From Cellvibrionaceae bacterium (GTDB lineage Bacteria > Pseudomonadota > Gammaproteobacteria > Pseudomonadales > Cellvibrionaceae): a stretch of 64,000 nucleotides of DNA. The notes under the pieces are model-generated. The model was not told the DNA's origin, made no database searches, and saw only the letters and a program-made list of their open reading frames with translations. A program made the position numbers and the translations under genes. The DNA lies in contig CBDHEY010000002.1 of the NCBI GenBank assembly GCA_965262305.1, forward strand, positions 657,135-721,134. Direction: 5' to 3'. This document shows, one piece after another, positions 2,790 through 34,425 of this stretch (its first letter is position 1; the number at the start of each line of letters is the position of its first letter).

Positions 2790-4274
2790 ATGACTCCAAA
2801 AGAGTTCGACCAGTTTAAACAAGCTGGTTTCAATAAAATTCCCCTTTACCGCGAAGTGTTAGCGGACACTGAAACGCCCTTATCAAGTTATCTAAAGTTG
2901 GCTCGCGGTAGTTACTCCTATCTTTTTGAATCTGTCCAAGGTGGCGAAAAATGGGGTCGATACTCGATTATTGGATTACCCGCGTCGGAGCGATTTGAAG
3001 CCTGGGGAAATCAAATAAAGGTGTTTCGTGACGGTGAATGCATTGATTCTTATGAGCACGAGGACCCCTTATCTGCGATTGAGCAACTTAAATCGAGTAT
3101 AAAAGTACCTAATATTGGTGGCTTGCCGAGCTTTTCTGGTGGCCTAGTGGGCTATTTCAGTTATGACACTGTTAGATATGTCGAGCCGAAGCTTGCTAAT
3201 TCAGTCCCTCAAGACAATCAAAACACCCCGGATATTTTATTACTCGTTTCCCAAGAAGTTCTAGTTTTCGATAACCTGAAGGGTAAGCTTCATATTATCG
3301 TTCATGCAGATCCTAACGAAGAGAATAGCTATGAGGCTGCAAAGTCCAAACTGGACAAGCTAGAAGCAAGGTTAAGTATGCCTATTCCTCAGCTACCTAT
3401 TATGCAAATGGCCCAATTTGTTGGTGAGCAGAAAGGGTTAAGTTGTGAAAAAGAGTTTGTTTCAAGTTTCGGCCGTGAAAACTTTATGTCTGCGGTTGAA
3501 CGAGTCAAAGACTACATTTTAGCGGGTGATGCCATGCAAGTGGTGCTGTCGCAAAAAATGCAACTACCTTTTGAATCAGAACCCTTAAATCTGTATCGAG
3601 CTTTGCGATGCCTTAATCCGTCGCCTTATATGTATTTTCTGGATATGGGAGATCATCAAGTAGTAGGATCTAGCCCAGAAATACTCGCTCGCCTAGAAGA
3701 TGATGAAGTAACAGTAAGGCCAATAGCTGGGACGCGTCGTAGAGGCTATGATGATGATGAAGATATTGCATTAGAAAAGGAGCTACTCAACGACCCCAAA
3801 GAAATAGCAGAACATTTAATGTTAATCGACCTTGGGCGCAATGATGTGGGTCGAGTTGCAAAAGTGGGGTCGGTATGCCTTACTGAGAAAATGATTGTCG
3901 AGCGTTATTCCCACGTAATGCATATCATCTCAAATGTCATCGGTAAACTCGATGATAACCTGTCAACAATGGATGTGCTGCGTGCCGCGTTGCCGGCAGG
4001 AACGCTCTCTGGAGCGCCGAAAATCAGAGCAATGGAAATTATTGACGAGCTTGAGCCTGAAAAACGTGGGATATATGGCGGTGCAATTGGTTATATGGCG
4101 TGGAATGGTAATATGGATACGGCCATTGCTATCCGAACAGCTGTTATTAAGGATGGAAAAATATTTGTTCAAGCGGGTGCAGGCGTAGTTGCTGATTCCG
4201 TCCCAGAACTTGAATGGAAAGAAACAATGAATAAAGCTAGGGCTTTATTCAGTGCCATAGATTGGGCAAAATAA
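2790..4274 (+). CDS. trpE: Anthranilate synthase component I
   Basis: Chorismate-binding-enzyme motifs [20 protein letters not shown] and [21 protein letters not shown]. The 494-aa length is typical for TrpE. Confidence 0.95.
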
Positions 4275-4302
4275 CGGAACAGGCGATCGAAGGAGTGGAT
4301 AA

Positions 4303-5025
4303 ATGGCAATTAAAGAGAGCGTGGTGTTGAATATGCAAGGTGAAGAACAGATTGCAAAAATGTCTGAAATTCACCATTTCAATGCGACTGAACTTGATCA
4401 TCTCAAGATACTTCGTCAGGGTACTAATGACGAGAAGATGCTAAAAACTTTCCGTGATCTTCGAACACAACTGTTTGAACAATCCGGCGGAGCCAACTTT
4501 AACTGTATGATCACTTGCGTAGCACCTGGCGGTGGGGCGACACATGTATGTCGTAACTTAGCGGCAGCTATAGCGCTTGATCGTACCAAAACATCTGTTA
4601 TTGTCGATTGTAATTTTTACTCTCCTACGGCTGAGGCGCTTTTAAGCGCTGAAATAAACGTGGGTTTATCTGATTATCTTAATTCCAAAGATATGGGTTT
4701 AGAGTACATCGTATATGCTTCAGGAATCCCTCGAGTAAGAGTCATTCCAGCAGGAAATAACGCAAGGGCTTCAGCAGAACGGGTCTCAACATTTCGCATG
4801 AATCAATTCTTAGACGAAATCAAAAGTCGCTATCCAGACCGTTTTATCTTAATAGATAGTCCAAGTATTTCTGAATATCCTGCTGACGCTAGAATGCTTG
4901 CTCAGGCGGTGGATTTTGTTATTTTGGTTGTACCTTATGGAATGGTTACACCTGCAGAAGTTCAAACTGCAATTAAGGCCATAGGTAATGAACGTTTAGC
5001 GGGTGTGGTGTTTAACAAGGTTTAG
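4303..5025 (+). CDS. BY-kinase / MinD-ParA-fold P-loop protein with a degenerate Walker A (Lys replaced by Ala); candidate PEP-CTERM-locus tyrosine-autokinase-like pseudo-ATPase
   Basis: An AAGGAG RBS lies 8 bp upstream, and the gene starts 28 bp after the trpE stop. FRDLRTQLF matches the BY-kinase N-terminal motif. CVAPGGGATHVCRNLAAAIAL sits where S-x-G-x-G-K-T would be. VIVDCNFYSP corresponds to the LIDxDxRxP motif. ILIDSPSI is Walker A' and DFVILVV is Walker B. There is no C-terminal Tyr cluster. Confidence 0.6.
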   Translation: MAIKESVVLNMQGEEQIAKMSEIHHFNATELDHLKILRQGTNDEKMLKTFRDLRTQLFEQSGGANFNCMITCVAPGGGATHVCRNLAAAIALDRTKTSVIVDCNFYSPTAEALLSAEINVGLSDYLNSKDMGLEYIVYASGIPRVRVIPAGNNARASAERVSTFRMNQFLDEIKSRYPDRFILIDSPSISEYPADARMLAQAVDFVILVVPYGMVTPAEVQTAIKAIGNERLAGVVFNKV

Positions 5026-5086
5026 ACTGGCAAAGAAGTTTCGAACTCTAGAGCTAAACTGCATTGCCGAAATTTATGCGCTAATT

Positions 5087-6454
5087 TCACTCCGTCGGTG
5101 CATTCGCCGATATATTATATTTTTTCATTAGGTCGTAAAGTGTCGGGCGAGTTACCCCTAATTGTTTTGCCGTAGCAGATATGTTGTATTCAGTCATATT
5201 TAATGCACGCAATATTGCGGCTCTTTCTGCGTTGTAGCGCACTTCTCTCAAATTAAGGCTGAAGTTTCCATCGGAGACCAAACCTAAGTCTTCGGAAGAA
5301 ACCAATTTTTCATCTGCCATGACCACACCACGTTTAATGCGATTTTCCATTTCTCGAATGTTTCCAGGCCAATCGTAAGCTTCAATTGCCTCAATGGCTT
5401 CTGGGGAGAAACCCGTTACCGGAGCATTATTTTGTTCGACTGATCGCTGTAAAAAGTGCCTTGCAAGGAGTAATTTATCGCCTTGCCTATTTCGCAAGGG
5501 AGGGATTTCAATTTCCATTTCACATATACGGTAGAAAAGATCTTCTCGAAATGTTCCTTCATTTACCATCTCTTGAAGATTTTTGTTTGTCGCACAAACA
5601 ACGCGAACATCGACAGGAATTTCTTCTCGTCCGCCCACTCGCTCAATGACTCTTTCCTGTAAAAAGCGAAGCAGTTTAGCTTGCAACATAAGTGGCATGT
5701 CGCCAATTTCATCAAGAAAAAGTGTGCCTCCGGATGCCGTTTCTACTTTTCCTTTAGTTGTTTTTGATGCGCCAGTAAAGGCACCTTTTTCGTACCCGAA
5801 CAGTTCACTTTCCATTAGGTTTTCTGGAACTGCAGCGCAGTTAATTGCAACTAAGCGTTTAGACTTTCGCTGGCTAAAGTTATGAAGTGCACGCGCAAGG
5901 ACTTCTTTTCCTGTTCCACTTTCCCCAGTTAGCGTGCAGGTCACATCTGACGGAGCAAGCTTTTCAATCGTACGACAGATTTTTAGCATTTTGGGGTCGC
6001 ACGCGATAATGCCATCTAAAGGGGATTGTTTTTGTTCTTCGGCTTTTCTGTGCTGTTCTTCTAGCGCGTAGATATGAAAAGCTCTTTGCAGAATAAGATC
6101 GAGAGTCTCGGGGTTTACCGGTTTTTGATAGAAATCATATGCACCCATCGCGACGGCTCTTACCGCATTTTCATAGTCTGCATTGCCAGTCATGACGATA
6201 ATTTTTGTCATGGGAGAGATGCTGGATATTTCTCGAATACAGCGGAATCCTTCATCAACACCTTCATCATCAGGTGGTAATCCTAGATCCTGCAAAACAA
6301 TAGGTGGTTCATGTAGACGAATTGCAGCAATTGCTTCTTCGCGATTTGACGCAGCGATTACTTCATATTGATCGAAATGCCAACGTAGTTGGCTTTGTAA
6401 ACCTTGATCATCTTCAACAATTAAAAGTTTTGATTTTTCTTCTTGGTGAGCCAT
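5087..6454 (-). CDS. prsR: Sigma-54-dependent response regulator, PEP-CTERM-box type (PrsR-like)
   Basis: Receiver domain (LLIVEDD...VLQDLGLPPDDEG, the distinctive LGLPPD motif of PrsR). Sigma-54 interaction AAA domain (GESGTGKEV, GAFTGA, ESELFGYEKGAFTGA). C-terminal Fis-type HTH. Confidence 0.85.
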   Translation of the reverse strand: MAHQEEKSKLLIVEDDQGLQSQLRWHFDQYEVIAASNREEAIAAIRLHEPPIVLQDLGLPPDDEGVDEGFRCIREISSISPMTKIIVMTGNADYENAVRAVAMGAYDFYQKPVNPETLDLILQRAFHIYALEEQHRKAEEQKQSPLDGIIACDPKMLKICRTIEKLAPSDVTCTLTGESGTGKEVLARALHNFSQRKSKRLVAINCAAVPENLMESELFGYEKGAFTGASKTTKGKVETASGGTLFLDEIGDMPLMLQAKLLRFLQERVIERVGGREEIPVDVRVVCATNKNLQEMVNEGTFREDLFYRICEMEIEIPPLRNRQGDKLLLARHFLQRSVEQNNAPVTGFSPEAIEAIEAYDWPGNIREMENRIKRGVVMADEKLVSSEDLGLVSDGNFSLNLREVRYNAERAAILRALNMTEYNISATAKQLGVTRPTLYDLMKKYNISANAPTE

Positions 6455-6469
6455 GAAATATTGTTTCTT

Positions 6470-8506
6470 TTAGATGGTTGGAATATTGATAACGAATGTT
6501 GTGCCTTCTCCAAGTGTGCTTTCTACGCTAATGCTCCCTCCAAGTGAAGCAATATACTCCCTCGCCTGATAAACGCCAACGCCCATTCCTTTGCCTGATT
6601 TTGTCGTCTCGAAAGGTTTAAAGAGTTTGTTTTGAATAAAGTCTTGATCCATGCCAGATCCGTTATCTTCTATTGTTAGCATAACAAATCCATCGTCAAG
6701 TTGTGCGGCAATATCTATAAATCCATTATTTGACGTTGCATCTTGAGCATTATGAATGATGTGCGTGAATACCATCACAAGGCTATCAAAGTCGGCTTTT
6801 ACTTTAATGCTCGTATCAATTGGTGCGAGTGTTGGCGTTGGAGGTGTCTTTTGGCATCGTTTAATTGCCTCGATAAGCACTTCTTTAATCGAAAGTGTTT
6901 TTGCGTGATCTGGCTCATTGTGCTGCAATTTACGCAGTAGATTATTCATTCTTTCGACAGAGTTGTTAATCGTGTTAATTGCATCTTCTACGAACGCGGG
7001 GTTGTCTTTGTGTTTCTCCGCGTTCTTAACAACCAGGGATTGCTGTGCAATCAGATTTTTTAAGTCGTGCATTACAAAAGCAGATAACTTGTTAAATGCA
7101 TCAAACTGGCGTACTTCCGTAAGTTGTTCAGCCTGTTCGTGGCGAGTCAAATAGCTTGCAAATTGACGTGCTACTGTCTTTATGAGATCTAAATCTTCCC
7201 AATTTAATGGAGTGAGTTTTTGCTTGCTTGTGAGAACCATAAATCCAAACAAATATCTTTCGGTAAGGAGTGGAAAAATCATCCAAATATTGTCGATTTT
7301 TCGTGCCCAATCAGGAAGTAATTCGTTAAATTGTGACAGGTCTCCTCCATGAGCGCGTGGAGAAAATACCCACTCTTGAGTCAGTGCCCCAGCGAATTCC
7401 GAGGATTCGGGTTCGAATGCTTCAGAAATATCGAAACTTACATTTATTTGTTTTACTGGCACTAAAACTTTTGATCTTTTGATCCAAAGTGCACCACCGT
7501 CACATTTAAACAGATCTGAGGCAACTCTTATTGCTCTGTGCGCTGGATCTTCGGCTTTTTCGTTTCGAGAAAGTTGGTTTATAAGGTTTATCCATTCGGT
7601 CCTATAGTCATATTTATAGCTAAATAGGTGTTTGTTAATTAACACGCTTAGTTTTTCTCTAAGAGAGCGAGATATCAAGATAGAACCAATAGTAAGCAAT
7701 GCCATTACGAGCAGTGCGGTATATATGACCGTACCCCAACTACCGCCATAGAGTTGCACGTAGTAACCCCCAAAAGACAGCACTGTAAGAAGCCCGCCAG
7801 CAATAGATAGTGATGTGGTGTAAAAAATTACCGGGCGCGAAAAAGTAAGCTTTACCGGGGACTCTGTTGGTTGCACTAAAGTGATAAAGCCAATACAGAT
7901 AAGTACACTAGAAGCCATGCTAACCGCAGCTCTGGTTCGCCATAATTCACTATCAAATGCGGAAAAGATTAAATTTTGCGTAAAGAGATAAGCATCGAAT
8001 ATAAATGTTGCTGCCATTACAAGACATAGCAATTTTATTACTCGATAGCGTGTGTTATTGCGATAGAGTTGCTCAACACTCAGAAGACCGACGATCGATA
8101 GCATTATTCCTTGCCAAAAGGTAATCGATTCCAGGGAGTCTACGTGAATTATGTCTAAGTAAATTGCAGAGGCAACCAATAAAAAGGTCGTGCACATCGA
8201 ATATATAACAAATTTATAGAGCTTTGGTAGGCAGTGGGTGCAGAGTTTTTCTGTTGTATGTGTAATCGCGACTATCCATACAACAAAATGGAGAGCTTCC
8301 ATAAAGTAGATTTTTGGAAGGGACTCATCACTAATATTTGAATAGTAAGCAATCGTAGATAACCAGGCAGTTTGCGTTGCTATCGCCACAAATAGTGACC
8401 ATGGTAGCTTACGCTTAATACTCTGAGTTAAAGATGCAATGGTTAGTAAAAAAGAAAGGAATGCCGCGCTTGAATAGGCAATTTGGGTTACGCTATCAAA
8501 TTCCAT
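6470..8506 (-). CDS. prsK: Multi-pass membrane sensor histidine kinase, PrsK-like (XrtA/PEP-CTERM system)
   Basis: About 8 N-terminal TM helices, a central GAF-like region, an H-box (FVMHDLKNLIAQ) and HATPase_c (DNGSGMD...GKGMGVGVYQAREY). It ends 15 bp upstream of prsR on the same strand. Confidence 0.8.
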   Translation of the reverse strand: MEFDSVTQIAYSSAAFLSFLLTIASLTQSIKRKLPWSLFVAIATQTAWLSTIAYYSNISDESLPKIYFMEALHFVVWIVAITHTTEKLCTHCLPKLYKFVIYSMCTTFLLVASAIYLDIIHVDSLESITFWQGIMLSIVGLLSVEQLYRNNTRYRVIKLLCLVMAATFIFDAYLFTQNLIFSAFDSELWRTRAAVSMASSVLICIGFITLVQPTESPVKLTFSRPVIFYTTSLSIAGGLLTVLSFGGYYVQLYGGSWGTVIYTALLVMALLTIGSILISRSLREKLSVLINKHLFSYKYDYRTEWINLINQLSRNEKAEDPAHRAIRVASDLFKCDGGALWIKRSKVLVPVKQINVSFDISEAFEPESSEFAGALTQEWVFSPRAHGGDLSQFNELLPDWARKIDNIWMIFPLLTERYLFGFMVLTSKQKLTPLNWEDLDLIKTVARQFASYLTRHEQAEQLTEVRQFDAFNKLSAFVMHDLKNLIAQQSLVVKNAEKHKDNPAFVEDAINTINNSVERMNNLLRKLQHNEPDHAKTLSIKEVLIEAIKRCQKTPPTPTLAPIDTSIKVKADFDSLVMVFTHIIHNAQDATSNNGFIDIAAQLDDGFVMLTIEDNGSGMDQDFIQNKLFKPFETTKSGKGMGVGVYQAREYIASLGGSISVESTLGEGTTFVINIPTI

Positions 8507-8578
8507 AATTAGATTATATTGTCGTCTCTATTTTATACTCGCCGTTAACAAGGCAAGAAGATTCGCGACAATATATAC

Positions 8579-10870
8579 CTAACTGACAGCCTGTGTGAAG
8601 TGATTAACGATATTGTTCATAACTCTATCAAAAAATGGTGATGAGTCTAGAATCTTTGCCTTATTAAATTGCATGTCATAGGCAAATTGTCGCCGAGTTT
8701 TTTCAAGTGTCTTAAATCCTAGTCTCGATACAAAGATGTAGGACTCTGCATCAATTTTAGCACTGAGTTTACAACGATGTATCTTGCCTTGCTTTTCGTC
8801 TTGGTATTCAATCCATGTTCCCAAGGGAAGGTCTTTTGCCTTTTGATAGTATTTCGACGATAGTTCTTCGTAACGTGACTGTTGACGTTCCAAAGCGGTC
8901 ATTTCTTCCCAGGTTTTCTCGTCTGTTTTAGACTTCCCAAGAATTTCTTTTTGTTCTTCCGAAAGTACTTTTCTTTTAACTTTTCTGCTGTCATTCCCAT
9001 CAATTCTAATAGCTTCTTCAATATTTTTAATAATTGATGATCGTGAATCTAAATTATCTATTGCGCTTTCTAGGCCAACTTCTATTCTAGAAAGTATTTC
9101 GGGCTTTAATCTTTGGGCGCGAGCTTGCGAGCGCTCGTCTGAGTGATCCTGGCTGAGCCAAATCAAATCAGTTACTAGTTGTTCGTTTTCTATCCACTCA
9201 GAAGTATCTTTTCCAGATTTTATGTAGGTAATGACTAAGACTTGAAGCCAGGTATTAGTAAGAAATTCGCTAATTTTTGGATGCAATGCCGCATCTTTCA
9301 TTTTGTCGTAAAGCACTGATTGCGCGAAACTTTTCGCATGCTTTATTTTATACTTTCCTTCTTCTGTTTGAGTTGTTCTCTTTTCGACAACCGCTGATCG
9401 CTTAGATTCTTTATTAATTAGCTTTTCAAGTTCGTCTAAGGCTTGTGCAAAAACAATGACATCTAGCTTGTATTGCTTGTTAATGGTATTAACTGCTTCA
9501 ACCACTTTCTTGTACAAAGGGTCTTTCTCTATGGGCTTGGTTTCATCAAGTGAAAGACCCACCTGCGTGATAGCATTGATTAGCTTTCTGGCAGGATGTT
9601 CCGAATTTGTTAAAAATGAAGTATCGTTTATTGCTACTTTCAAAATAGGGATTTGCAGTCGGCACACAAGAGATTGAATTGCGATGGGCAGATTTTCATC
9701 TTCGAGTACCTTATCAAAAAATAGCGCAACTAAATTGATTGTATCTTCTTCTGGTTGCTCCAAAGATTGGGGCTTTGCAGGATTTTTAGTTGCAAGAAGC
9801 TCGGTAACAAGATCTGGTAAGATATTTTTAGGTGTATCAGCTTTTGCCAGGGCTTGATCGAACTCTGGTTGCCGGTTGGACAAGTTTTTTGCCAAGTCAG
9901 GCGCTTTCATAATCGGGCCAGGATTATTGGCATAGAAATAATAATTGTTCTGACCAGAATTATTAGGGTTATTCGGGATGGTATAAATGGATCCTTGGGT
10001 CGAGCTTCTAATTGCCGCCATTAGCGTTGCTAGGGTACTTTGACTGATAGAAATAGAAGGCTCTGGAGTTGCCAATATCGGAGGCTCATTTGATATGGGC
10101 TCACTCGGTTTTTCTTGTGTCTCCGTTCCAGTTGGAAGCTCTGCATTTTTAGTTTTATTGAGGTTTTTGGGTACCTTAGGGAGTATTCCAGTTTCAACCA
10201 GTATTTGGTTTATATCTGCATAAACATGCCCAAGCTGCTTTAATACGTGTTTTTCGAATAGTTTGAAGACGATCAACCGCGTTTTAATGTTAATTTTGAG
10301 CTTTTCATTACATGCTCCAACGAAAGCAGCAGCAATCTGAGCTGGATCGAGGGGGTTATTTTTTTCGGTAACGTTTATTTGCAATAAAAGGTGGTCAAGT
10401 CGAATCGATATCTCATAAAGTTCTGTCTTGAACGATTCTCTTGTACGATTTGCCATTCCCTTAAGTGCTAAATCGACTTCTAAGTCGTCGCCTTCAACAA
10501 TCGCCAAATTCGATTCGTCTCGATCATGCGTTTCCGTAAATGAGTCCAGCTCTGCCCCGGGAGTCATAAATCGTTCAAAATTAGCCAGTAAAGCCTGAGA
10601 AACGTGTTTTGCCAACCCACCACGTTTAATCCGAAGCTCTCTCATTGACTCGAAATACAGGTTTTCTTCGTTATTGCTTGATGCGCGTTTAGATAGCTCG
10701 TAAAAAAGGTCATCAATAGCTGAGAACATATGGTCTAGATACCTCTCACATGAAGTGATAGTAGTATCTTCTATTTGATTTAACACTCTTGGAGATGGCG
10801 CCGCCTTTTTTGGTGGGGGAGTGTTTTTCACTAGTTCCAGGTGTCCGTCATTGAGTTTGGATGGCGCCAT
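8579..10870 (-). CDS. Large conserved hypothetical protein, DUF1631-like (paralog of the partial ORF at 62129)
   Basis: 763-aa uninterrupted ORF. It shares a colinear block with the ORF at 62129: DENLP...L..P.LK.A..D..F...EHPARKL in this ORF versus DENLP...HTPFLKIAFVDPGFFEKSDHPARLL in the paralog. The assignment to the DUF1631 family is from memory. Confidence 0.6.
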   Translation of the reverse strand: MAPSKLNDGHLELVKNTPPPKKAAPSPRVLNQIEDTTITSCERYLDHMFSAIDDLFYELSKRASSNNEENLYFESMRELRIKRGGLAKHVSQALLANFERFMTPGAELDSFTETHDRDESNLAIVEGDDLEVDLALKGMANRTRESFKTELYEISIRLDHLLLQINVTEKNNPLDPAQIAAAFVGACNEKLKINIKTRLIVFKLFEKHVLKQLGHVYADINQILVETGILPKVPKNLNKTKNAELPTGTETQEKPSEPISNEPPILATPEPSISISQSTLATLMAAIRSSTQGSIYTIPNNPNNSGQNNYYFYANNPGPIMKAPDLAKNLSNRQPEFDQALAKADTPKNILPDLVTELLATKNPAKPQSLEQPEEDTINLVALFFDKVLEDENLPIAIQSLVCRLQIPILKVAINDTSFLTNSEHPARKLINAITQVGLSLDETKPIEKDPLYKKVVEAVNTINKQYKLDVIVFAQALDELEKLINKESKRSAVVEKRTTQTEEGKYKIKHAKSFAQSVLYDKMKDAALHPKISEFLTNTWLQVLVITYIKSGKDTSEWIENEQLVTDLIWLSQDHSDERSQARAQRLKPEILSRIEVGLESAIDNLDSRSSIIKNIEEAIRIDGNDSRKVKRKVLSEEQKEILGKSKTDEKTWEEMTALERQQSRYEELSSKYYQKAKDLPLGTWIEYQDEKQGKIHRCKLSAKIDAESYIFVSRLGFKTLEKTRRQFAYDMQFNKAKILDSSPFFDRVMNNIVNHFTQAVS

Positions 10871-11294
10871 GCTGTATCTCTTGATGTTTCTCTAATTGTA
10901 GCCATTAAATAGGGCAATAGATGAATTAGATGCAATAAGCATTCCTGATGCTTGATTTTTGCGCAATTAAAACAATTTTAGAGGATTCCTATACCTCACA
11001 GAATTGTTAGCTATTGATTTTACTCGATTTTTGTCAACATAAACTAAGACATAATGAGAAAATGGTTACAAATTCGTTATAAACCCAGGGGTGGTGTTTT
11101 CTTTGTGTAAGAAATGTCGACATTTCGAGTGTTTGACTTGGCATTAAATGTTACTTCGTGGTTTTTATGTGAATGCGAAATTTATTTTATTCATCAAAAA
11201 TGAGCATTTGATACATTAGCGCGCTAGTTAATAAAAATGTCATTAATTCTTTCGAGCTCGAGTCTCTCCCGGTTGCGTCTTACGACACGCTCCC

Positions 11295-11300
11295 TATAAT
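11295..11300 (+). promoter_or_regulatory. Candidate sigma-70 promoter for trpGDC (TTGCGT-N16-TATAAT)
   Basis: TATAAT at 11295-11300 with TTGCGT 16 bp upstream, 60 bp before the trpG ATG. Confidence 0.4.
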
Positions 11301-11325
11301 GCTACCTTAATAAAAATGATGTACG

Positions 11326-11346
11326 CGTCTCGGATAGACGTTTTTT
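11326..11346 (+). terminator. Terminator/attenuator-like hairpin in the trpG leader (CGTCT-cggat-AGACG followed by TTTTTT)
   Basis: A 5-6 bp GC-containing stem immediately followed by a T6 run. It lies 16 bp upstream of the trpG start and downstream of the candidate -10. Confidence 0.4.
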
Positions 11347-11361
11347 GCTCAGAGGTTCTTC

Positions 11362-11940
11362 ATGCTTTTAATGATCGATAACTACGATTCATTTACCTAT
11401 AACGTCGTCCAATATTTAGCCGAGTTAAAAGCAGAGGTGAAAGTGATACGTAACGATGAATGCTCGATTGATGAAATCGAAGCCATGTCGCCTGAGCGTA
11501 TTGTTGTTTCACCAGGACCATGTACACCTAATGAAGCAGGTATCTCCGTTCAAGCAATAGAGAGGTTTGCTGGTAAGATTCCAGTTCTTGGAATTTGTTT
11601 GGGGCATCAAAGTATTGGCCAAGCATTTGGTGGAAATATCGTCCGAGCTGAACGTGTCATGCATGGAAAAACGTCTCCTATCCTGCACAAAGGTGTAGGC
11701 GTGTTTTCTGAATTGCCAAAGCGGTTTACAGCAACACGTTATCATTCATTGGTAATAGAAAAAGATACACTTCCAGAGTGCTTAGAACTTACAGCTTGGA
11801 CAGAAGATGATACGGGTGAAATCGCTGAAATAATGGGCGTGAGGCATAAGTTTTTTCCTATTGAAGGTGTGCAATTCCATCCAGAATCTATTTTGAGTGA
11901 GCATGGTCATCAATTGCTTCAAAATTTTTTACATCTGTAA
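11362..11940 (+). CDS. trpG: Anthranilate synthase component II (glutamine amidotransferase)
   Basis: [26 protein letters not shown] contains the catalytic Cys. HPES contains the catalytic His. Confidence 0.95.
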
Positions 11941-11961
11941 ATTTCACTAAGAGCAAAAATT

Positions 11962-12981
11962 ATGGATATCAAGTCTGCTATCGCTAGTCTAGTTGAAGGG
12001 AAAGACCTTTCTAAATCTGAAATGTACGCCGTTATGAAGTCGATTATGACCGGAGAGACGACTGCGGCGCAAATAGGCGCATTTTTAGTAGCACTTAGAA
12101 TCAAAGGCGAATCAATTGACGAAATAGTGGGTGCTGTGGAAGTAATGAGGGAGTTGGCAACGCCTGTTTCGATTCAATCTGAATACTTGGTCGATACCTG
12201 TGGAACAGGTGGTGATGGTGCAAACCTATTTAACGTATCCACTGCTGCTGCATTTGTAGTTGCCGCAGCTGGAGCCCAGGTCGCTAAACATGGAAATCGC
12301 TCTGTTTCTAGCTCAACGGGAAGCGCCGACCTATTAGAGAAGGCTGGTGTAAATCTAAATATTCCTGCGGATCAGGTTGCGCGCGCGGTGCAAGAGATTG
12401 GAGTTGGTTTTATGTTTGCTCCTGCTCATCATGGCGCAATGAAGTACGCAATTGGACCTCGAAAAGAACTGGGTATGCGCACCATATTTAATATGTTGGG
12501 ACCAATGACTAACCCTGCTAGTGTAAAGCGTCAGGTTATCGGCGTATTTTCACGAGATGTAGCCAAGCCAATGGCTGAGGTTTTAAGGCAGCTTGGTAGT
12601 GAGCATGTACTGGTGGTGCACTCTGAAGATGGTCTTGATGAGTTTTCAGTCTCGGCTAGAACGTTTGTCGTTGAACTAAAAGCAGGTGTAATTTCCGAAT
12701 ATGCCGTGTCACCGTCTGGCTATAACTATGACAATCTTGACGGTCTTTCAGTTAATAGCTCAGAAGAATCTCTTGCATTAATTCAAAAAGCTTTTTCTGA
12801 TGATGAGTCAGATGAAGTCGTGAAAGCACGGGACATGATTACACTAAATGCCGGTGCGGCAATTTATGTTTCCGGTTTAGCACTAGATTTAGCTTCTGGC
12901 GTTGAAATGGCAGAAGATGCGTTATCCACTGGACTTGCTAAGGAAAAGCTAAAAGAATTAATTGAATTTACCAATTGCTAA
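11962..12981 (+). CDS. trpD: Anthranilate phosphoribosyltransferase
   Basis: [15 protein letters not shown] and 339-aa length. Immediately follows trpG. Confidence 0.95.
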
Positions 12982-15273: not shown

Positions 15274-15918
15274 TTAAACGTAATAACTTGTTTTTGTCAT
15301 AGCCTTTGAAATCAAACTCATCACGTTTTTGACTGGCTTTGGGAAGTTTGTACCTCCTGCATCTAATGCTGCATGACCATGAGCTTCCTCATCTTCAAGC
15401 ATCTGTTTCAATATTTCTCTGGTTTTTAGGTCGTTCTTTGGTAATTCTTTTAAGTGTGATTTTAAGTGCTCGCTGACTTGCTCCTCAGTCGCTGCGACAA
15501 AGCCTAGGCTAATCTTATCGCTGACTAGACCAGCAGTTGCTCCCAGTCCAAAAGATAAAGAATACCAAAGAGGATTAAAAACACTTGTAGGTTCGTTTAA
15601 TTCTTTTAGTCTCGATTCGCACCAAGCGAGATGATCAATCTCTTCATCAGCCGCTTGCTCCATCTCATATCTTACAGTTTCTAGTTTTGCCGTTATTGAT
15701 TGGCCTTGATACAAAGCTTGCGCACAAACTTCTCCAGCGTGATTTACACGCATTAACCCCGCTACATGTTTTTTTTCCTTCTCAGATAATTCTTGTTCGT
15801 GGTCAACTTTCGAGGCAGGTGAACTGTTTGAAGCCACTTGGGTATTTCGAGTTAACGTTCTTAATGCGCGATCAGATTGAATAATGATCTGATCAATGAA
15901 TGTAATATTTCGTTTCAT
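15274..15918 (-). CDS. coq7: Ubiquinone biosynthesis hydroxylase, COQ7/Cat5 family (di-iron carboxylate)
   Basis: RVNHAGEVCAQALYQGQ and EE..H..W E-x-x-H di-iron motifs. 214-aa length. Confidence 0.85.
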   Translation of the reverse strand: MKRNITFIDQIIIQSDRALRTLTRNTQVASNSSPASKVDHEQELSEKEKKHVAGLMRVNHAGEVCAQALYQGQSITAKLETVRYEMEQAADEEIDHLAWCESRLKELNEPTSVFNPLWYSLSFGLGATAGLVSDKISLGFVAATEEQVSEHLKSHLKELPKNDLKTREILKQMLEDEEAHGHAALDAGGTNFPKPVKNVMSLISKAMTKTSYYV

Positions 15919-16003
15919 GTTTTTCCAAAATTACGCTAATCTAAAGCGTTTCTCGATGTCTTGTATGTTAATTTTTGTGCCAAAAAAGGAAACTTTATAC
16001 TCG

Positions 16004-17491
16004 ATGAATAATAATGATTTACAGCTGATTCTCAACACAAATGTTTCTTTGGTTGTTATCGAAACTTACGATGAACCTCGTGCACTCGATTTGCTTAAAG
16101 GCGCGTTTCAGATCAATAACATTCCAGCATGGCGCTGGACCGTCACCGAGGGATTAGAGACATTGGGTTTTGGTGTAAAACTCATGGAGCATGAAAAGCG
16201 CACAGATCCAGATGAATTATTAATGCATATAAAATCGAGCCGACAAGCTTCTGCATTTGTACTTTGCGATTTTCACCCTTATCTCGAAGAACATAAAACG
16301 ATTAGGCATTTAAAAGACATTGCTCTCGAGAGTAACCGTACAGGGCACAAAATTGTCCTTATAAGCCATGAACTAAAACTTCCTCCAGAGTTGAGTCGCT
16401 ATGCGTCTTCGGTAAGACTTTCTCTGCCGGACGAAAGCGAAATACTTTCAATTGTTCGAAGTCAAGCGAGGTCTTGGGCAGAAGCAAACAAAAAATCTCG
16501 TATTAAAACAGATAATGTGACACTAAATAAATTGGTAAACAATCTTTCGGGTTTGACTCACCAAGATGTTGAGCGATTGGCTCATTCTGCAATAGCGGAT
16601 GACGGAGCAATTACGGAATCTGATTTGCCAGAGATTACACGTGCTAAATTCGAATTAATGGATATGGAAGGCGTCTTGCACTATGAGTACAGTTTGGCTC
16701 ACCTAAAAGATGTTGGAGGCCTAAACGGTTTAAAAGGTTGGCTAGCCGAGCGAAAAGATGCGGTACTAGAACCCGTATGTATCGACGAGCCTTTTCTAGA
16801 TGCTCCGAAGGGAGTGCTTTTATTTGGCGTGCAAGGTGGAGGTAAAAGCCTTGCGGCCAAAGCAATCGCTGGAATATGGGGCTTACCTTTATTACGTTTA
16901 GACATGGCGAGTCTATTTAATAAGTTTATTGGCGAAACGGAAAAGAACCTTAGAAAATCTTTAGAACTTGCAGATCTTATGGCGCCTTGTGTACTGTGGA
17001 TGGATGAAATTGAGAAAGGGCTCGCCAACGATAGCTCAGATAATGCAACAGGAAAACGTCTTCTGGGTACGTTGTTGACATGGATAGCAGAAAGAAAGAG
17101 TCGCGTTTTTATGGTGGCCACAAGCAACGACATTAGCATTTTGCCGCCGGAATTAATGCGCAAGGGAAGATTCGACGAAGTATTTTTTGTTGATCTTCCT
17201 GATAATGAAACGAGAGAAATAATTTTTCGTATTCATATGGAAAAACGAAAAATAAACCCCGAATCTTTTGACCTCACTGTTCTTGCTCAACAAACAGAAG
17301 GCTTTACCGGTGCGGAAATTGAACAAGCTATTGTGAGTGGTATCTATTCAGCTCGGGCACAAAAAGAAAATGTTAATCAAGTGCATGTCTCTCGTGCAAT
17401 CCTAAATACGCAACCTTTATCTGTCGTAATGTCGGAGAAAATTGAACGCTTGCGCTCATGGGCGATAAAGCGAGCCGTCGCTGCAAACTAA
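16004..17491 (+). CDS. Classic-clade AAA+ ATPase with an uncharacterised ~250-aa N-terminal domain
   Basis: Walker A GVQGGGKSL, Walker B VLWMDEIEK, sensor-1 ATSND and Arg finger RKGRFD. The ATG at 16004 (MNNNDLQ...) is the likely true start; the ORF track's 15896 start adds 36 spurious codons overlapping the coq7 start. Confidence 0.8.
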   Translation: MNNNDLQLILNTNVSLVVIETYDEPRALDLLKGAFQINNIPAWRWTVTEGLETLGFGVKLMEHEKRTDPDELLMHIKSSRQASAFVLCDFHPYLEEHKTIRHLKDIALESNRTGHKIVLISHELKLPPELSRYASSVRLSLPDESEILSIVRSQARSWAEANKKSRIKTDNVTLNKLVNNLSGLTHQDVERLAHSAIADDGAITESDLPEITRAKFELMDMEGVLHYEYSLAHLKDVGGLNGLKGWLAERKDAVLEPVCIDEPFLDAPKGVLLFGVQGGGKSLAAKAIAGIWGLPLLRLDMASLFNKFIGETEKNLRKSLELADLMAPCVLWMDEIEKGLANDSSDNATGKRLLGTLLTWIAERKSRVFMVATSNDISILPPELMRKGRFDEVFFVDLPDNETREIIFRIHMEKRKINPESFDLTVLAQQTEGFTGAEIEQAIVSGIYSARAQKENVNQVHVSRAILNTQPLSVVMSEKIERLRSWAIKRAVAAN

Positions 17492-24858: not shown

Positions 24859-27800
24859 CTAGCTGTTGAACGTTTGTTGGGTTGATGTGGTTTCAACATC
24901 AATTTTTCGCAGTTCTTCTAATACTTGTTGCATTTTGTCATGCGTTCTTAAATCGATTTCTAACTTCTTATCCATACTTCTAACGAGTGGGAAGATACTT
25001 TCTTCAATTGTTTTGGCAAGTGTATTTAATATTTTATCAATTCCTGGAACGGGTTGGTTAACAACCTCGATGTTTGTTGTATTGGGTGTTGTTTTTTCTT
25101 GTGCGGTTGAAAGTTTTCGTAAACTGGCTTCGATCTGTTGAAGCTCTCTTATACCAGCTTTTTGCATATCGTTAGATGCTGTTGATTTCGCTACTTCTGT
25201 TAATGTCGAAATGTTATTTGCCAAATCAATAAGTTGTGCGACGACGCGTCCACCTATATCGGCACTGTCACCACCCATTGCTTTATTTCTCATAAAGTCT
25301 TCTTTTATTTGCTCCCAGCGCACGCGAGACTTATCTGAAAACTGATTTCTTAACTCTTCTAGTTTTAAGAGGTTAGCTTCCGCGCCGGTTGTAAGCATTT
25401 GAGCCTCACCAAGATAATGATCTTCGATCAGTTGCTGGAGCTCATTTTCATTCATTACAGAAGATACTTTCTCGGCCATCTTGTTCATGTTTCGATAGCT
25501 ACCTTGGAGTTTAAATGGTGGTTCAGTCCTATATTTATCATCTTGCGCTGCAGATGCGATATATTCTAAGTTGATTTTTAATATTACATCTTGAATGACA
25601 AAAAGCTTTTTCAGTACTGATGTTATTTCGTTCACCTCGGCCACCGAATATTGGTGGTTCAGTTCCGAAGTTACGATATTTTTCCCTTTAGCTAAATCGA
25701 TTAGCTTATATATATCTGACATTTCTCTAGTCGCTAAAGGCGCAAGAATTGCGTTAGACGTTAAGCTGTTTTCGATGTAACTCAATGCAAATTGTTCGTC
25801 CATACCGCCAAGAATATCGCCAAGGTTATAAATATCTGCACGGTTAGCCAACATATCTGGTACTTTGAATGCTTCGCCAGCTTCCGTGTAAGGGTTACCA
25901 GCCATGACAACGCAGAATTTTTTGCCTCTCATGTCATAGGTTTTAGTTTCATTTGCCCAAACCCCTTCAATACGTCTTGTACCATCGCAAAGAGAGATAA
26001 ATTTCTGTAAAAATTCTGGATGGGTATGTTGAATATCGTCGAGATAAAGCATAACGTTGTTACCCATCTCGAACGCAAGATTTACTTTCAATAATTCTTG
26101 TTTAGCTGTCGCGTTTGGTGCCTGTGATGGATCCAGGCTCAAAACATCATGTCCAAGGGAAGGGCAATTGATTTTCATGAAAATTAGCCCTAGACGATTT
26201 GCTACGTATTCCATTAACGTCGTTTTCCCATATCCGGGTGGAGAAATCATCATTAACAATCCCATTAGATCTGATCTTTTGTTTTCTCCAACGGTGCCCA
26301 TTTGTTTCGCTAAGTTATCACCGATTAACGGTAAATATGATTCATTCACTAGTCGATTACGTACGAAAGAACTAAGCGGCCGAGGTTTGTATTGATCTAG
26401 CCTCAGGTTACTCTTTTCTTGATTAATGAGTTTTTGGCGACAATGTAAATAATTTCGATATCCTAATACAGTTTCTGTTGCGTGGGTCTCCAACCTTAGT
26501 AGAAACTCATCGAGGTCAAATTTAAGGGATTGGTTCTGGATCGTTTCATGGTTACCTAGCAAGCCCGAAGCCGTGGTTTTGAGATCAATTTCGGTGTTCC
26601 TTCTTTCAATTCTCTCTTCGGTATTAATGAGTGCAATTGCTTCCGGAATATATCGCTCTAGATGTTTGAGTGATTTATCTGCGACTAGAGCTTTCAACCA
26701 GGCTTCTGTGAGTTGCCATCTTTCTGCTGGCCAACCGAGCATTTTTTCCAGCGATGTTTGTAGTTTTCGCCAGGCAGTTTCGCTCATTTCAAGTTTTAGC
26801 TGATCAACAAGTTCTCTAGCATACTTGCTTGATACAAATTCCATACGATCTCTGCTAAGTTCTTCCGTTAAGTATTCTGCGCTTCGGCGGATCGTAATGC
26901 TCGTAATATCAATAGAGTGCTTTCCTATGAATTCATTTAATGCTGATTCAATTTCATTCTCAAGTAAATTTTTCGCCATATTGCTAGCAAAAATATCGCG
27001 CATTTGCGAAGCTGTGATCGAGCGATCCCTCCAAGTTTCATAACTTAGTTGAGAATCAGAAAGTTTAGTGTTCTGCTTAAGTCGAGTAACATACTTAATA
27101 TTTGCCCAAAATATTTGGGCTATTGCGCGTGATTCTGGATCAAATTTCAATAATTCGGCATTGGTGAGAACGGGATAAATTGCCTTTATTATTTGAGCCG
27201 CGTCAAAATCGTGTATGCCTTTTTCGTAACCTTCTTTATAGAGCGGCGTAGCGAAATCTCTTACATGACTTAGTAGCAATTTTTCATCATTTATTAGCGC
27301 ACCCAGTTTGTTACTTTTCGGACTTTTTAATATTTGATATGCAAGATACTCAGCGCGATAGACGTGAGGTGATTCCGATTCTATGTTTAGATCCCAAAAA
27401 TCGCTTAGATTGTTTAGCGCAATGTCCGTGACGAGTTCGTAATAGTCTGTGCCCGATAGATGGAAATAGAGTTGATTGTTTCGAGGAATAATCGTGAGAT
27501 CAAGCTCTTGGGTATTAACACTAAACCTATGACGAGGTCCAAGTTTTATTACTTTTCCACCATCCTCATAAATATCAGCTTTGTCCCTTAATGATCTAAA
27601 GGCATTGTCTTTTAAGTGTTTTATTTTTGCACTAATGTCGTCAGCTTTAACGCTACTAGAAAGTGAATTTAGCTGATCAACCATTTCATTTATTTTTAAT
27701 ACAAGTGCATCTGACGCAAAATAAGTATTAAGCTCGTCTTGCTCTTTAAATTTCAGTATTCTCCGATCTATGCTCGCCAATATGCGCTCAGCCGCATCAA

Positions 27801-30126: not shown

Positions 30127-30214
30127 AACTGTTTTCCTTCAAAAAATGACTATACTTTGGTCCGAGAAATACTCAACAAGTAAATAGTGAGACAGAAATT
30201 TCTCTTGGTATAGC

Positions 30215-30754
30215 TTAGACTCTATAAGGGTCGTCCGATATTAAATACGCAATGATTTCAGCTTTGTGGTTAGATGATTGAACTATTGATCGCATAGCTT
30301 TTATTTGCTCAAAGTTTTCTTCAAACTGTTTTTGATAAAGTTCTTCGAGCATATCAGTCGTTTTAGCCTCCCGAACTTTTCTTTGCCAAACATCTGTAAA
30401 TATCTCGTTAAGTTTCAACGATAATCCACTATTTTTGAGTAGTTCCCACTCGCCATGATCCAACCAAATGGCATTTCTACTTGGGCTCAGATCCAAGCGA
30501 TGTTCTGTGGAAGCGGCTATTCTATATTTAATCATGAGATTTCCAGATTCAGGGCACAGTAGCGCCCTGTTTGACTCAGTAGCTTCAATCTCGAAATCAC
30601 CTACTTCATCCCTGATAGAACTTTGTTCCTTCCATTTCAGATAGTCCTGTAAATATAAAAAATTACCTTTACAGTTTGAACATCGCTTAGTGGGTAGAAA
30701 GGGTTCTAGAAAATGGTTAACCAACTTACCTTTGTTACAGCTAGTGCATTTCAT
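30215..30754 (-). CDS. Zinc-ribbon protein (zf-TFIIB-like C4 ribbon at the N-terminus plus a second, Cys-depleted copy)
   Basis: N-terminal C-x2-C...C-x2-C (CTSCNKG...CSNCKG). A second module, LLCPESGNLM...AIWLDHGEWELL, resembles the GvWlD.gEl zinc-ribbon tail but lacks three Cys. Confidence 0.55.
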   Translation of the reverse strand: MKCTSCNKGKLVNHFLEPFLPTKRCSNCKGNFLYLQDYLKWKEQSSIRDEVGDFEIEATESNRALLCPESGNLMIKYRIAASTEHRLDLSPSRNAIWLDHGEWELLKNSGLSLKLNEIFTDVWQRKVREAKTTDMLEELYQKQFEENFEQIKAMRSIVQSSNHKAEIIAYLISDDPYRV

Positions 30755-30769
30755 TTTAATCGCTCGTTC

Positions 30770-31009
30770 TTACAACCCGAATTTGGACTTGATTTCGCTA
30801 ACTCGCTGAATCATAGTTTGGTCCAGGTCTTTATCATTGAGCCTTGATATAATATTGCTTAGAACACGTTTCTCGTTCTCATCAACTACACCATCTCGCA
30901 GCGCAACGTCTACGAGGCCGTTTAATTCATCTACATCTAGCTTGCCATCATCTGCAAAACAATTGATAGATTTGAATGTCAGCTCTAAATAATCGCGTGA
31001 TTCGCTCAT
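30770..31009 (-). CDS. Small acidic hypothetical protein (79 aa; TerB/DjlA-N-like repeat character)
   Basis: Tightly packed between the flotillin and zinc-ribbon genes (15-16 bp gaps). DGKLDVDELNGLVDVALRDGVVDENEKRVL pattern. Confidence 0.4.
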   Translation of the reverse strand: MSESRDYLELTFKSINCFADDGKLDVDELNGLVDVALRDGVVDENEKRVLSNIISRLNDKDLDQTMIQRVSEIKSKFGL

Positions 31010-31025
31010 TTTGTTCTCCTTTTTC

Positions 31026-32975: not shown

Positions 32976-33002
32976 GTTGTGCTCCTTAGTTACAATAATG
33001 TA

Positions 33003-33656
33003 TTAGTTAGAATTGAATTCGTTTTCAGAAATTACTGAATAGGTTCCTGATTCTTCATGTCTTTCGAGTAACACTACCTTGTCTCCTTTGTTGAATATTT
33101 TATTGTTTCGGCTTCTCACTCTTAGAAGTAATCCTGCTCCGCCGTCTTCGAGAATAGCTTCTCCAAATTTGTCATCAACACGGCTGGACCTAACTACTGC
33201 AACTTGGCCAATAACGTGTTTTATTGAAGGCGCTTCCATTTGTTTAAAAAGCTTCCTTAAGGGTTTGATTACAATTGTTGTAATCAGAACCGATATATAA
33301 AAAACGCATGCCATAATTCCAATGCCTACAACGAACTCTAGCGTGCGACCCGGAATAAAAGGGTTTATTAGTGCGACGGCAATATAACAGAGTATCCATC
33401 CTGTAAGTGACAAAATGGTGATGATGATAGGTAGAGGCACTCCATTTAATCCTATCTTCATAAGTACGCCACCGATCCCGCCTATGTTTCCTTCCGCTAT
33501 TTCAATTTCAAAAGCATCTATATCAAAAACCCCGAGTATCGATACAAGCCAGAATAAAACACTAAACCCCAAAAAAAACGTAAAAACAACTGTTGGAAAT
33601 GAGCTAATGTTGTTGTAGAACGGGCTCATCCCTTCATGTAATAAAATTGCAAACAT
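33003..33656 (-). CDS. NfeD/YqiJ-like membrane protein (flotillin partner; C-terminal OB-fold)
   Basis: Several TM helices followed by a C-terminal soluble beta-domain (GDKVVLLERHEESGTYSVI). Immediately upstream of the flotillin gene, as in yqiJK and yuaFG operons. Confidence 0.7.
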   Translation of the reverse strand: MFAILLHEGMSPFYNNISSFPTVVFTFFLGFSVLFWLVSILGVFDIDAFEIEIAEGNIGGIGGVLMKIGLNGVPLPIIITILSLTGWILCYIAVALINPFIPGRTLEFVVGIGIMACVFYISVLITTIVIKPLRKLFKQMEAPSIKHVIGQVAVVRSSRVDDKFGEAILEDGGAGLLLRVRSRNNKIFNKGDKVVLLERHEESGTYSVISENEFNSN

Positions 33657-33726
33657 GTCACACCCTTAACAATGGTTATTGAATTGGGCAATATTAATCG
33701 CGCACGTCCATTGTGCAAAGTAGAAA

Positions 33727-34413: not shown

Positions 34414-34425
34414 TTTAATGCTCCT

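Follow-up and report, generated by a model that had tools for sequence, protein, structure and literature searches.

Gene X and its neighbours

We analysed a 64-kb stretch of Cellvibrionaceae DNA, referred to here as the window, and focused on the product of the open reading frame (ORF) at positions 4303-5025, which we name X. A first-pass annotation made from the sequence alone had described X as a protein with the fold of the bacterial tyrosine kinases (BY-kinases) that has lost its Walker A lysine, follows trpE closely and faces the prsR and prsK genes of a PEP-CTERM system. Its account of the gene is borne out by the sequence and by family scores: the ORF encodes 240 amino acids (aa), starts after a gap of 28 nucleotides (nt) from trpE, has an AAGGAG ribosome-binding site and is convergent with prsR-prsK. 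The locus contains the following features.

2790-4274, forward strand: trpE, anthranilate synthase component I (TIGR00564, 564 bits); stop codon at 4272-4274, 28-nt gap to X
4290-4295, forward strand: AAGGAG ribosome-binding site, 7 nt before the ATG of X, read from the sequence
4303-5025, forward strand: gene X, stand-alone BY pseudokinase of 240 aa; ATG at 4303, stop codon at 5023-5025
5087-6454, reverse strand: prsR, PEP-CTERM-box sigma-54 response regulator (TIGR02915, 681 bits; cutoff 502.6)
6470-8506, reverse strand: prsK, histidine kinase of the XrtA/PEP-CTERM system (TIGR02916, 572 bits; cutoff 300)
8579-10870, reverse strand: DUF1631/PacR-like protein of 763 aa (PF07793, 620 bits), the fourth member of a conserved block
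11362-12981, forward strand: trpG-trpD, the far edge of the inserted block, followed by trpC and crp (assigned from ORFs and synteny)

X and prsR are separated by 61 nt. The DUF1631 protein scores 184 bits on the 'PacR family' model, far under its cutoff.

X keeps a BY-kinase fold with degenerate catalytic motifs

The best-scoring family for X among the NCBIfam models is TIGR03018, the 'XrtA-associated tyrosine autokinase', with 158.4 bits and an E-value of 1.5e-46, which misses the curated cutoff of 230.65. Weaker matches are to Wzc, EpsG and TIGR01007 (polysaccharide biosynthesis tyrosine autokinase; 63.3 bits, below the cutoff of 108.05), and a Pfam scan of X gave no match at E<=0.01. We also built an AlphaFold2 model of X from 43 homologues (predicted local distance difference test score 87.3, predicted template-modelling score 0.84), for which the best Foldseek matches were all BY-kinase catalytic domains, namely those of Wzc, the CapA/B chimeras (CapB), VpsO, BceF and Etk. 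Wzc (3LA6) was matched with an E-value of 1.7e-14, a root-mean-square deviation (rmsd) of 2.2 Å over ~199 residues and a template-modelling (TM) score of 0.72-0.77. Both the BY-kinase fold and the kinship to TIGR03018 that had been suspected for X are thus confirmed, the latter at a sub-cutoff score.

A residue-level alignment to Escherichia coli Wzc assigns four motifs.

4444-4464, forward strand: KTFRDLR, residues 48-54, remnant of the EX2RX2R oligomerisation motif, aligned to Wzc E508/R511/R514
4522-4548, forward strand: degenerate Walker A loop APGGGATHV, residues 74-82
4597-4626, forward strand: degenerate Walker A' VIVDCNFYSP, residues 99-108, aligned to Wzc LLIDCDMRKG
4846-4869, forward strand: Walker B ILIDSPSI, residues 182-189, aligned to Wzc VLIDTPPI, with Asp185 kept

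The catalytic lysine position (Wzc K540) is occupied by Ala79 (codon GCG, 4537-4539), in agreement with the loss noted at first pass. The DxDxR pattern of Walker A' has changed to D102-x-N104-x-Y106, with the second Asp replaced by Asn104 and the Arg by Tyr106, and the equivalent of Wzc Y569 is Thr109. The protein ends in N238-K-V, two residues past the last beta-strand, and the C-terminal tyrosine cluster reported as missing is indeed absent. Two motif labels had been misplaced: the alignment makes ILIDSPSI, formerly called Walker A', the Walker B motif, and makes DFVILVV (residues 204-210), formerly called Walker B, the strand that follows it. The FRDLRTQL region was rightly recognised as a BY-kinase feature and holds the two arginines of EX2RX2R, but the true degenerate Walker A' had been overlooked. 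This oligomerisation motif reads K48-x2-R51-x2-R54 in X, with Lys in place of Glu, and both arginines are invariant in the family.

Previous work established that the Walker A lysine is required for ATPase and kinase activity, the variants Wzc K540M and ExoP K589I being inactive, and that the Walker A' aspartates contribute to catalysis, such that their mutation lowers or abolishes activity (PMC9800525). Because X is devoid of the lysine, of the second Asp and the Arg of Walker A', of a Y569 equivalent and of the tyrosine cluster, cycles of autophosphorylation can be excluded. Judged by its residues, X is almost certainly a BY-kinase-fold protein incapable of autophosphorylation, as had been predicted from the lost lysine and tyrosines.

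The lysine is missing throughout a large family

A word-indexed search found 298 homologues of X, and we aligned the best 120 (45-100% identity over ~240 aa), which include proteins of Saccharophagus degradans, several Teredinibacter species and Agarilytica. Among these 120, position 79 is Ala in 51, Cys in 29, Gly in 20, Ser in 18 and Thr in two, and is never Lys; nor did we find a conserved Lys inside or beside the Walker A loop. The loop flanks are kept, with G78 in 120/120 and Ser/Thr80 in 119/120 sequences, as are the variant Walker A' (D102 in 120/120, N104 in 118/120, Y106 in 115/120) and Walker B (D185 in 117/120, P187 in 120/120). The C-terminal end point is that of X in 102 of the 120, and the last 20 residues hold a mean of 0.64 Tyr. 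A sequencing error that put Ala in place of a Lys codon, which the first-pass annotation had raised against its own claim, is excluded by these data, given that 0/120 homologues have Lys and that at least two base changes separate GCG from AAA or AAG. Orthologues with an intact GKT or GKS, raised in the same context, do not occur either.

When 1.84 billion representatives were searched exhaustively, 20,526 matched with E<=1e-3, and 154 of these reached E<=1e-30. Among the 150 best representatives of 50%-identity clusters, a canonical GxGK[ST] is present only in the protein designated P0267; two are ambiguous (P0270 with GKN, and P0242 with an out-of-register GKS), and the remainder read S-x-x-P-x-GG-[AGS]-[ST]-F/Y-V. 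Nine lysine-less representatives score 161-205 bits on TIGR03018, all below its cutoff, compared with 291 bits and a pass for the Lys-bearing P0267. On the strength of these profile scores, X is placed in a large lysine-less sister clade of TIGR03018 that lies outside every curated model: it comprises at least ~150 clusters at 50% identity and is covered by no Pfam or NCBIfam model. The public names of its members are 'XRE family transcriptional regulator', 'CpsD/CapB family tyrosine-protein kinase' and 'Mrp family ATPase'.

The first of these names, assigned by NCBI, is carried by the X orthologues P0028, P0035, P0036 and P0070 of S. degradans, T. turnerae, a Teredinibacter sp. and Agarilytica. 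No helix-turn-helix or Pfam domain is detectable in these proteins, and the name looks like a propagated misannotation. P0267 itself (locus L040, 8001-9560) is a 519-aa tandem protein in which a degenerate lysine-less domain (~27-230) is followed by a canonical TIGR03018 domain with GEGKS (~299-499); its neighbour (L040, 7139-7942) has a weak PEP-CTERM domain match. This fusion may be a hint, of the Rosetta-stone type, of cooperation between pseudo and active domains.

Relatives of X stand beside a co-polymerase or beside prsRK

We compared 35 genome loci and S. degradans 2-40, probing them with the window proteins and with proteins from the neighbourhoods of the relatives. A 14-sequence alignment served as the query for the locus search, a diverse 43-sequence alignment being too divergent. 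Four classes of gene order were found, in two of which X lies next to a gene for a polysaccharide co-polymerase (PCP).

Class A, 9 loci and the window: rpe-trpE-X-prsR(-)-prsK(-)-DUF1631(-)-trpG-trpD
Class B, 5 loci (Agarilytica and others): the class A block, with rpe directly upstream and no trpE
Class C, 11 loci, X 46-52% identical: rpe-exporter-X-PCP-glycosyltransferases
Class D, 9 loci and two short contigs, X 40-46% identical: exporter-PCP-X-(outer-membrane protein or exosortase)

A TIGR03007-like PCP adjoins X in 22/22 class C and D loci, and in six class D loci its stop codon and the start of X abut or overlap (gaps of -4 to +2 nt). At locus L028, a TIGR03027 exporter (203 bits) and a TIGR03007 'XrtA system polysaccharide chain length determinant' (281 bits), both passing their cutoffs, are followed by X and an exosortase, with a priming sugar transferase and an Asn-synthase-type amidotransferase as further neighbours. 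Distant lysine-less proteins are found in similar surroundings: at L038, genes matching TIGR03027 (197 bits) and TIGR03007 (390 bits) come first, X starts 2 nt later, and next are genes for a TIGR03016-like outer-membrane protein and for an ATPase resembling TIGR03015 (308 bits); at L039 a TIGR03007 gene (352 bits) precedes X by 4 nt. Members of the lysine-less clade thus take the place of the 'tyrosine autokinase' in XrtA/PEP-CTERM polysaccharide loci. The X-prsR-prsK-DUF1631 block is kept in 15 genomes, DUF1631 stands beside prsK in 14/14 class A and B loci, and X is the only component of a polysaccharide locus that remains at the window site.

Three of the compared contigs (L004, L018 and L033) are labelled as Flavobacteriales, Sphingobacterium and Polaribacter metagenome-assembled genomes; they show Cellvibrionaceae-type synteny (rpe/trpE/X/prsRK or an XrtA locus) and 60-88% protein identity to the window, and are probably mis-binned.

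X has a single-origin history by prsRK and is under strong selection

We built a neighbour-joining tree and rooted it with the canonical P0267 domain; in it, classes A and B together with the window form one clade inside the PCP-adjacent classes, with class C as its sister and class D basal. This nesting indicates that the loss of the linked PCP and the residence at the side of prsRK are derived and arose once; the upstream trpE was lost more than once inside the A+B clade. X is under strong purifying selection and is not decaying: the ratio of nonsynonymous to synonymous substitution rates (dN/dS) was 0.018 in one and 0.010 in the other of the two pairs whose dS was not saturated. X has a lower dN (0.015-0.20) than PrsK and Rpe in 8/8 pairs, and one similar to that of PrsR, and the reading frame is intact in 35/35 loci. 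A recent horizontal transfer of X is unsupported, the guanine-plus-cytosine (GC) content being uniform. Between the prsRK-adjacent and PCP-adjacent classes, 51 positions are at least 90% conserved in both, and only three class-specific fixed differences were found, all of them conservative (M69/L, A157/G, D195/E).

Linkage of X to trpE

X had been described as apparently co-transcribed with trpE. In the window we found neither a sigma-70 promoter nor an intrinsic terminator in the trpE-X and X-prsR gaps, and no stable hairpin in the former. Since no promoter-like or terminator-like site or stable hairpin separates the two genes, read-through from trpE into X is likely in the window, but we take this for an accident of the local gene order, as the arrangement is not conserved: the gap measures ~56-350 nt in the trpE-containing class A relatives, and trpE is absent upstream of X in the five class B genomes and in nearly all class C and D loci (L033 being the one exception). 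We searched the region before X for a sigma-54 promoter (TGGCAC-N5-TTGC) in class A and B loci and in the window, and saw no convincing site. An Rfam scan of the window returned no family at gathering score, and neither trpE (upstream region 2617-2789) nor trpG is preceded by a recognisable trp leader or attenuator.

At L033 the order is rpe-gph-trpE and then a whole XrtA locus. We attribute the position of X beside trpE to the history of the locus, since in this lineage the interval from (rpe-)trpE to trpG is where the XrtA polysaccharide locus resides. A related observation concerns the trp genes themselves: in the window (2790-12981) trpE is split from trpG-trpD-trpC by the inserted block, and in L033 (6215-13646) an XrtA/PEP-CTERM locus follows trpE. 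From these gene orders, the trpE..trpG interval seems to be a long-standing insertion site in the lineage; in Pseudomonas aeruginosa, the R/F-pyocin cluster sits in the same interval.

A candidate docking segment in the neighbouring co-polymerases

The TIGR03007 co-polymerases next to X consist of a first transmembrane segment (TM1), a long periplasmic region, a second (TM2), a ~40-residue cytoplasmic segment and a third transmembrane segment. The part that follows TM2 carries the conserved motif 'DPRxR...L..(LP)..PVLAVVPH..TP'. When a profile of this segment was compared with all PDB sequences, it matched four entries only (4jmp, 2ved, 3bfv and 4jlv; E 0.07-0.9), and in each the matched stretch is the C-terminal activator peptide of CapA within a CapA-CapB chimera ('VIFDKRIKDEEDVEKELGLPVLGSI' vs 'VLLDPRIRFKEQLEQKLGIPVLAVV'). 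CapA, EpsV and HfsA dock their BY-kinase or pseudokinase partner through the corresponding peptide (PMC12004946), and the specificity of this sequence match is striking. A search of the PDB with the full-length PCP matched only the periplasmic regions of PslE and Wzc and not the docking segment. The third transmembrane segment is seen after the docking segment in the TIGR03007 PCPs of L015-L036 (e.g. L028, 8368-9894), so that the peptide is a loop tethered at both ends, whereas in CapA, EpsV and HfsA it is a free C-terminal tail.

Other features of the window

The remaining genes of the window are housekeeping genes. The GC content of the window is low for a relative of the Cellvibrionaceae (~0.38-0.45, ~40% overall), and its source contig measures ~2.06 Mb (2,062,187 bp); this could indicate a reduced, host-associated genome. 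On the reverse strand at 24859-35058, between rlpA/rhomboid and mltB, lies a block without NCBIfam names, which encodes a 1755-aa DUF3686 + DUF7902 + AAA protein, a 179-aa Zn-ribbon protein, a PspA/IM30 protein, two proteins of 649 and 217 aa without a family match, and a BacA-like 'biofilm formation regulator' that scores 290 bits, just below the cutoff of 300. Furthermore, the 5' ends of the coq7 ORF (15274-15918, reverse strand) and of a divergent ORF (15896-17491, forward strand) for a 531-aa AAA+ protein (FtsH/proteasome-ATPase-like) overlap by 23 nt; the true start of one of the two probably lies further downstream than called.

Discussion

Our combined motif, family and gene-order analyses lead us to propose that X is a BY pseudokinase that would act as a cytoplasmic scaffold and neither hydrolyse ATP nor autophosphorylate. 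First, the retention of the Gly-rich loop, Ser/Thr80, D102, D185 and R51/R54 points to a nucleotide-binding-competent, catalytically dead ring-former. Octameric BY-kinase rings are built by EX2RX2R and dissolved by phosphorylation of the tyrosine cluster (PMC9800525), and X would assemble into a ring via R51/R54. Second, this ring may be stabilised by the binding of Mg-nucleotide without turnover, as in Wzc K540M, which is ATPase-dead and still binds ATP/ADP-Mg, leading to a closed conformation and oligomerisation (PMC9800525). Third, X would use the CapA-like peptide of a PCP-2 co-polymerase lacking a kinase domain as its docking site, as in the pairs EcpK/EpsV and HfsB/HfsA, and its ring would then organise the co-polymerase oligomer without phosphorylation cycles. 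For the relatives of X, this scaffold model appears well supported by gene order and by the coupling of stop and start codons. In the window clade, X would have been split from the co-polymerase and exporter genes and have stayed beside prsR-prsK. We assign a probability of roughly 60% to the reading that window-clade X scaffolds an unlinked co-polymerase within a matrix programme controlled by PrsK/PrsR, which on our analysis seems the most economical one for this clade. The conserved surface of X is essentially unchanged with respect to its PCP-coupled relatives, which argues for the same molecular activity.

Several results weigh against a scaffold on an unlinked co-polymerase. Homologues of a PCP, exporter or exosortase are absent from the window and, in the 14 class A and B loci, from the 10 kb on either side of X. 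A word-indexed search with the nearest PCP as query returned 117 relatives down to ~20% identity, with none on class A chromosomes or the window contig, and none of the best 120 of 6,809 exporter matches (>=57% identity) lies there; these negatives do not prove absence. Six-frame translations of the window and of the class A and B loci gave only noise when searched for a CapA-like docking peptide (best E 0.6), and the E-values that connect the TIGR03007 segment to CapA are themselves marginal. Nucleotide binding, ring formation and PCP binding are all properties that we infer for X.

The best-surviving alternative is that window-clade X has been co-opted as an accessory or adaptor of the PrsK/PrsR module, perhaps with the DUF1631/PacR-like protein, for example to modulate PrsK or to report envelope or nucleotide status. 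An adaptor role linked to PrsK/PrsR had also been suggested in the first-pass annotation, and its one basis, conserved synteny, holds in 15 genomes, five of them without an upstream trpE. The single origin of the clade, the very strong purifying selection on X despite the lack of a linked PCP and the failure to detect a PCP or exporter on class A chromosomes fit such a role, and DUF1631/PacR is tied to c-di-GMP and biofilm regulation in Xanthomonas, PacR of X. campestris having c-di-GMP, biofilm and motility phenotypes (PMC9543026). However, X is convergent with prsR and outside its operon, and no sigma-54 promoter was found upstream of it; the wider family is coupled to the XrtA chain-length determinant, and three conservative shifts against 51 shared positions give no sequence sign of an altered interaction surface. 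The adjacency can also be residual, as prsRK is commonly near XrtA polysaccharide loci (Haft 2006), and the missing PCP and exporter rest on a word-indexed search or on the best 120 of 6,809 matches. We regard co-option as unlikely, if clearly the most serious competitor. Its strictest form, in which the window clade is truly without an XrtA-type co-polymerase and exporter and keeps the pseudokinase as a dedicated partner of PrsK/PrsR and the PacR-like DUF1631 protein, we hold to be more doubtful again; if true, X would be the first case in which two-component signal transduction has recruited a bacterial tyrosine pseudokinase out of polysaccharide assembly.

It is improbable that X retains ATPase or kinase activity by way of non-canonical residues, such as an Arg or Lys that a partner protein or an adjacent subunit contributes in trans, and phosphorylates another substrate. 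The strict conservation of the Gly-rich loop, Ser/Thr80, D102 and D185 suggests that a phosphate/Mg site is maintained, and the tandem P0267, with degenerate and canonical domains together, indicates that heteromeric arrangements involving an active kinase occur. Against activity stand the loss of ATPase on replacement of the Walker A lysine in Wzc K540M and ExoP K589I (PMC9800525), the simultaneous absence of the Lys, the second Asp and the Arg, the lack of a tyrosine acceptor tail and the want of any conserved Lys at or beside the loop. A function related to tryptophan through co-transcription with trpE is very improbable: the 28-nt gap, the strong ribosome-binding site and the lack of a promoter or terminator between the genes in the window would suit it, but trpE is missing upstream in five class B genomes and nearly all class C and D loci, the class A gaps are as wide as ~56-350 nt, and no family link to amino-acid metabolism exists. 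Finally, although X is all that is left of a polysaccharide locus at its site, a sequencing error or a pseudogene persisting after deletion of that locus is rejected by the comparative data, since a change from GCG to AAR takes two substitutions, the lysine is missing across homologues, the frame is intact in 35 loci with a dN/dS of 0.01-0.02 and uniform GC, and X is more conserved than PrsK and Rpe.

A scaffold role for X would have implications beyond the window. With a lysine-less clade in the 'tyrosine autokinase' position of XrtA loci, phosphorylation-independent control of co-polymerases may be common in floc- and biofilm-forming systems. The window lineage, in turn, may serve as a natural experiment in which a pseudokinase by PrsK/PrsR is held under strong selection after the loss of its linked co-polymerase.

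Comparison with known systems

BY pseudokinases are already known as a kind, with EcpK, HfsB and GumC-like fused forms as examples. They were first defined experimentally in 2025 with EcpK; HfsB is the second example, and a wide distribution has been proposed (PMC12004946). A sequence survey of BY pseudokinases by Cuthbertson et al. is cited in that paper. We found no literature linking PEP-CTERM with Cellvibrionaceae; Haft 2006 mentions neither a tyrosine kinase nor Saccharophagus, and the T. turnerae genome paper contains nothing on exopolysaccharide or PEP-CTERM.

The closest parallel is EcpK (MXAN_7447) of Myxococcus xanthus, the partner of the PCP-2 protein EpsV, whose genes are not adjacent (Blocher et al. 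2025, PMC12004946). By its published description, EcpK shares with X a stand-alone BY-kinase fold, the loss of catalytic residues and the absence of a Tyr-rich tail, and in the window X likewise has no adjacent PCP gene. The published proposal for EcpK is that it serves, independently of phosphorylation, as a scaffold bound to a cytoplasmic peptide at the C terminus of a kinase-less co-polymerase, and it is this model that we extend to X. The two proteins differ in that EcpK is without all three Walker motifs, whereas X still has a Gly-rich loop that includes Ser/Thr, along with the first Asp of Walker A' and the Asp of Walker B, and in that EcpK has a basic C-terminal helix and X ends at its last strand. 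Unlike EcpK, X also belongs to an XrtA/PEP-CTERM-associated clade, and in the window lineage it is syntenic with prsRK and the PacR-like DUF1631 gene.

HfsB and HfsA of the Caulobacter crescentus holdfast are, according to the summary in PMC12004946, a pseudokinase and a kinase-less PCP-2 that are both needed for polysaccharide synthesis. As described there, HfsB is like X a stand-alone BY pseudokinase without catalytic residues or a Tyr tail; it differs in acting in the holdfast pathway and in having a C-terminal helix that contacts the PCP. No NCBIfam model of the HfsB type matched X at E<=0.01. Set beside pseudokinases of the EcpK/HfsB type, X thus has the fold and the loss of catalytic residues and tail, and this loss is partial, with the Gly-rich loop, S/T80, D102 and D185 kept. 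GumC of Xanthomonas has been termed a 'pseudo-BY-kinase' without a tyrosine cluster and with a proposed role in oligomerisation or scaffolding (PMC9800525); going by that description, the kinase-like cytosolic domain and the co-polymerase form one polypeptide in GumC, whereas X stands alone.

With TIGR03018 proteins, the relatives of X share the position directly after the TIGR03007 chain-length determinant in XrtA loci. X itself is unlike them in its sub-cutoff score, in having neither the Walker A Lys nor a tyrosine cluster and, in the window, in having no adjoining TIGR03007 gene. The canonical BY-kinases (Wzc 3LA6/7NHR, CapB 2VED/4JLV, VpsO, Etk and BceF) have in common with X the fold (TM score ~0.72, rmsd 2.2 Å), Walker B and RX2R. 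X departs from them in having no Walker A Lys, DxNxY for DxDxR, no Y569 equivalent and no tyrosine cluster, in being unfused to a co-polymerase and in falling below the TIGR01007 cutoff. Residue by residue, X naturally resembles Wzc K540M, the inactive mutant that binds Mg-nucleotide and oligomerises. In keeping the phosphate-loop and Mg-site signature, unlike EcpK, the lysine-less clade would represent a natural equivalent of this mutant and a good test case for whether nucleotide binding alone can drive ring assembly.

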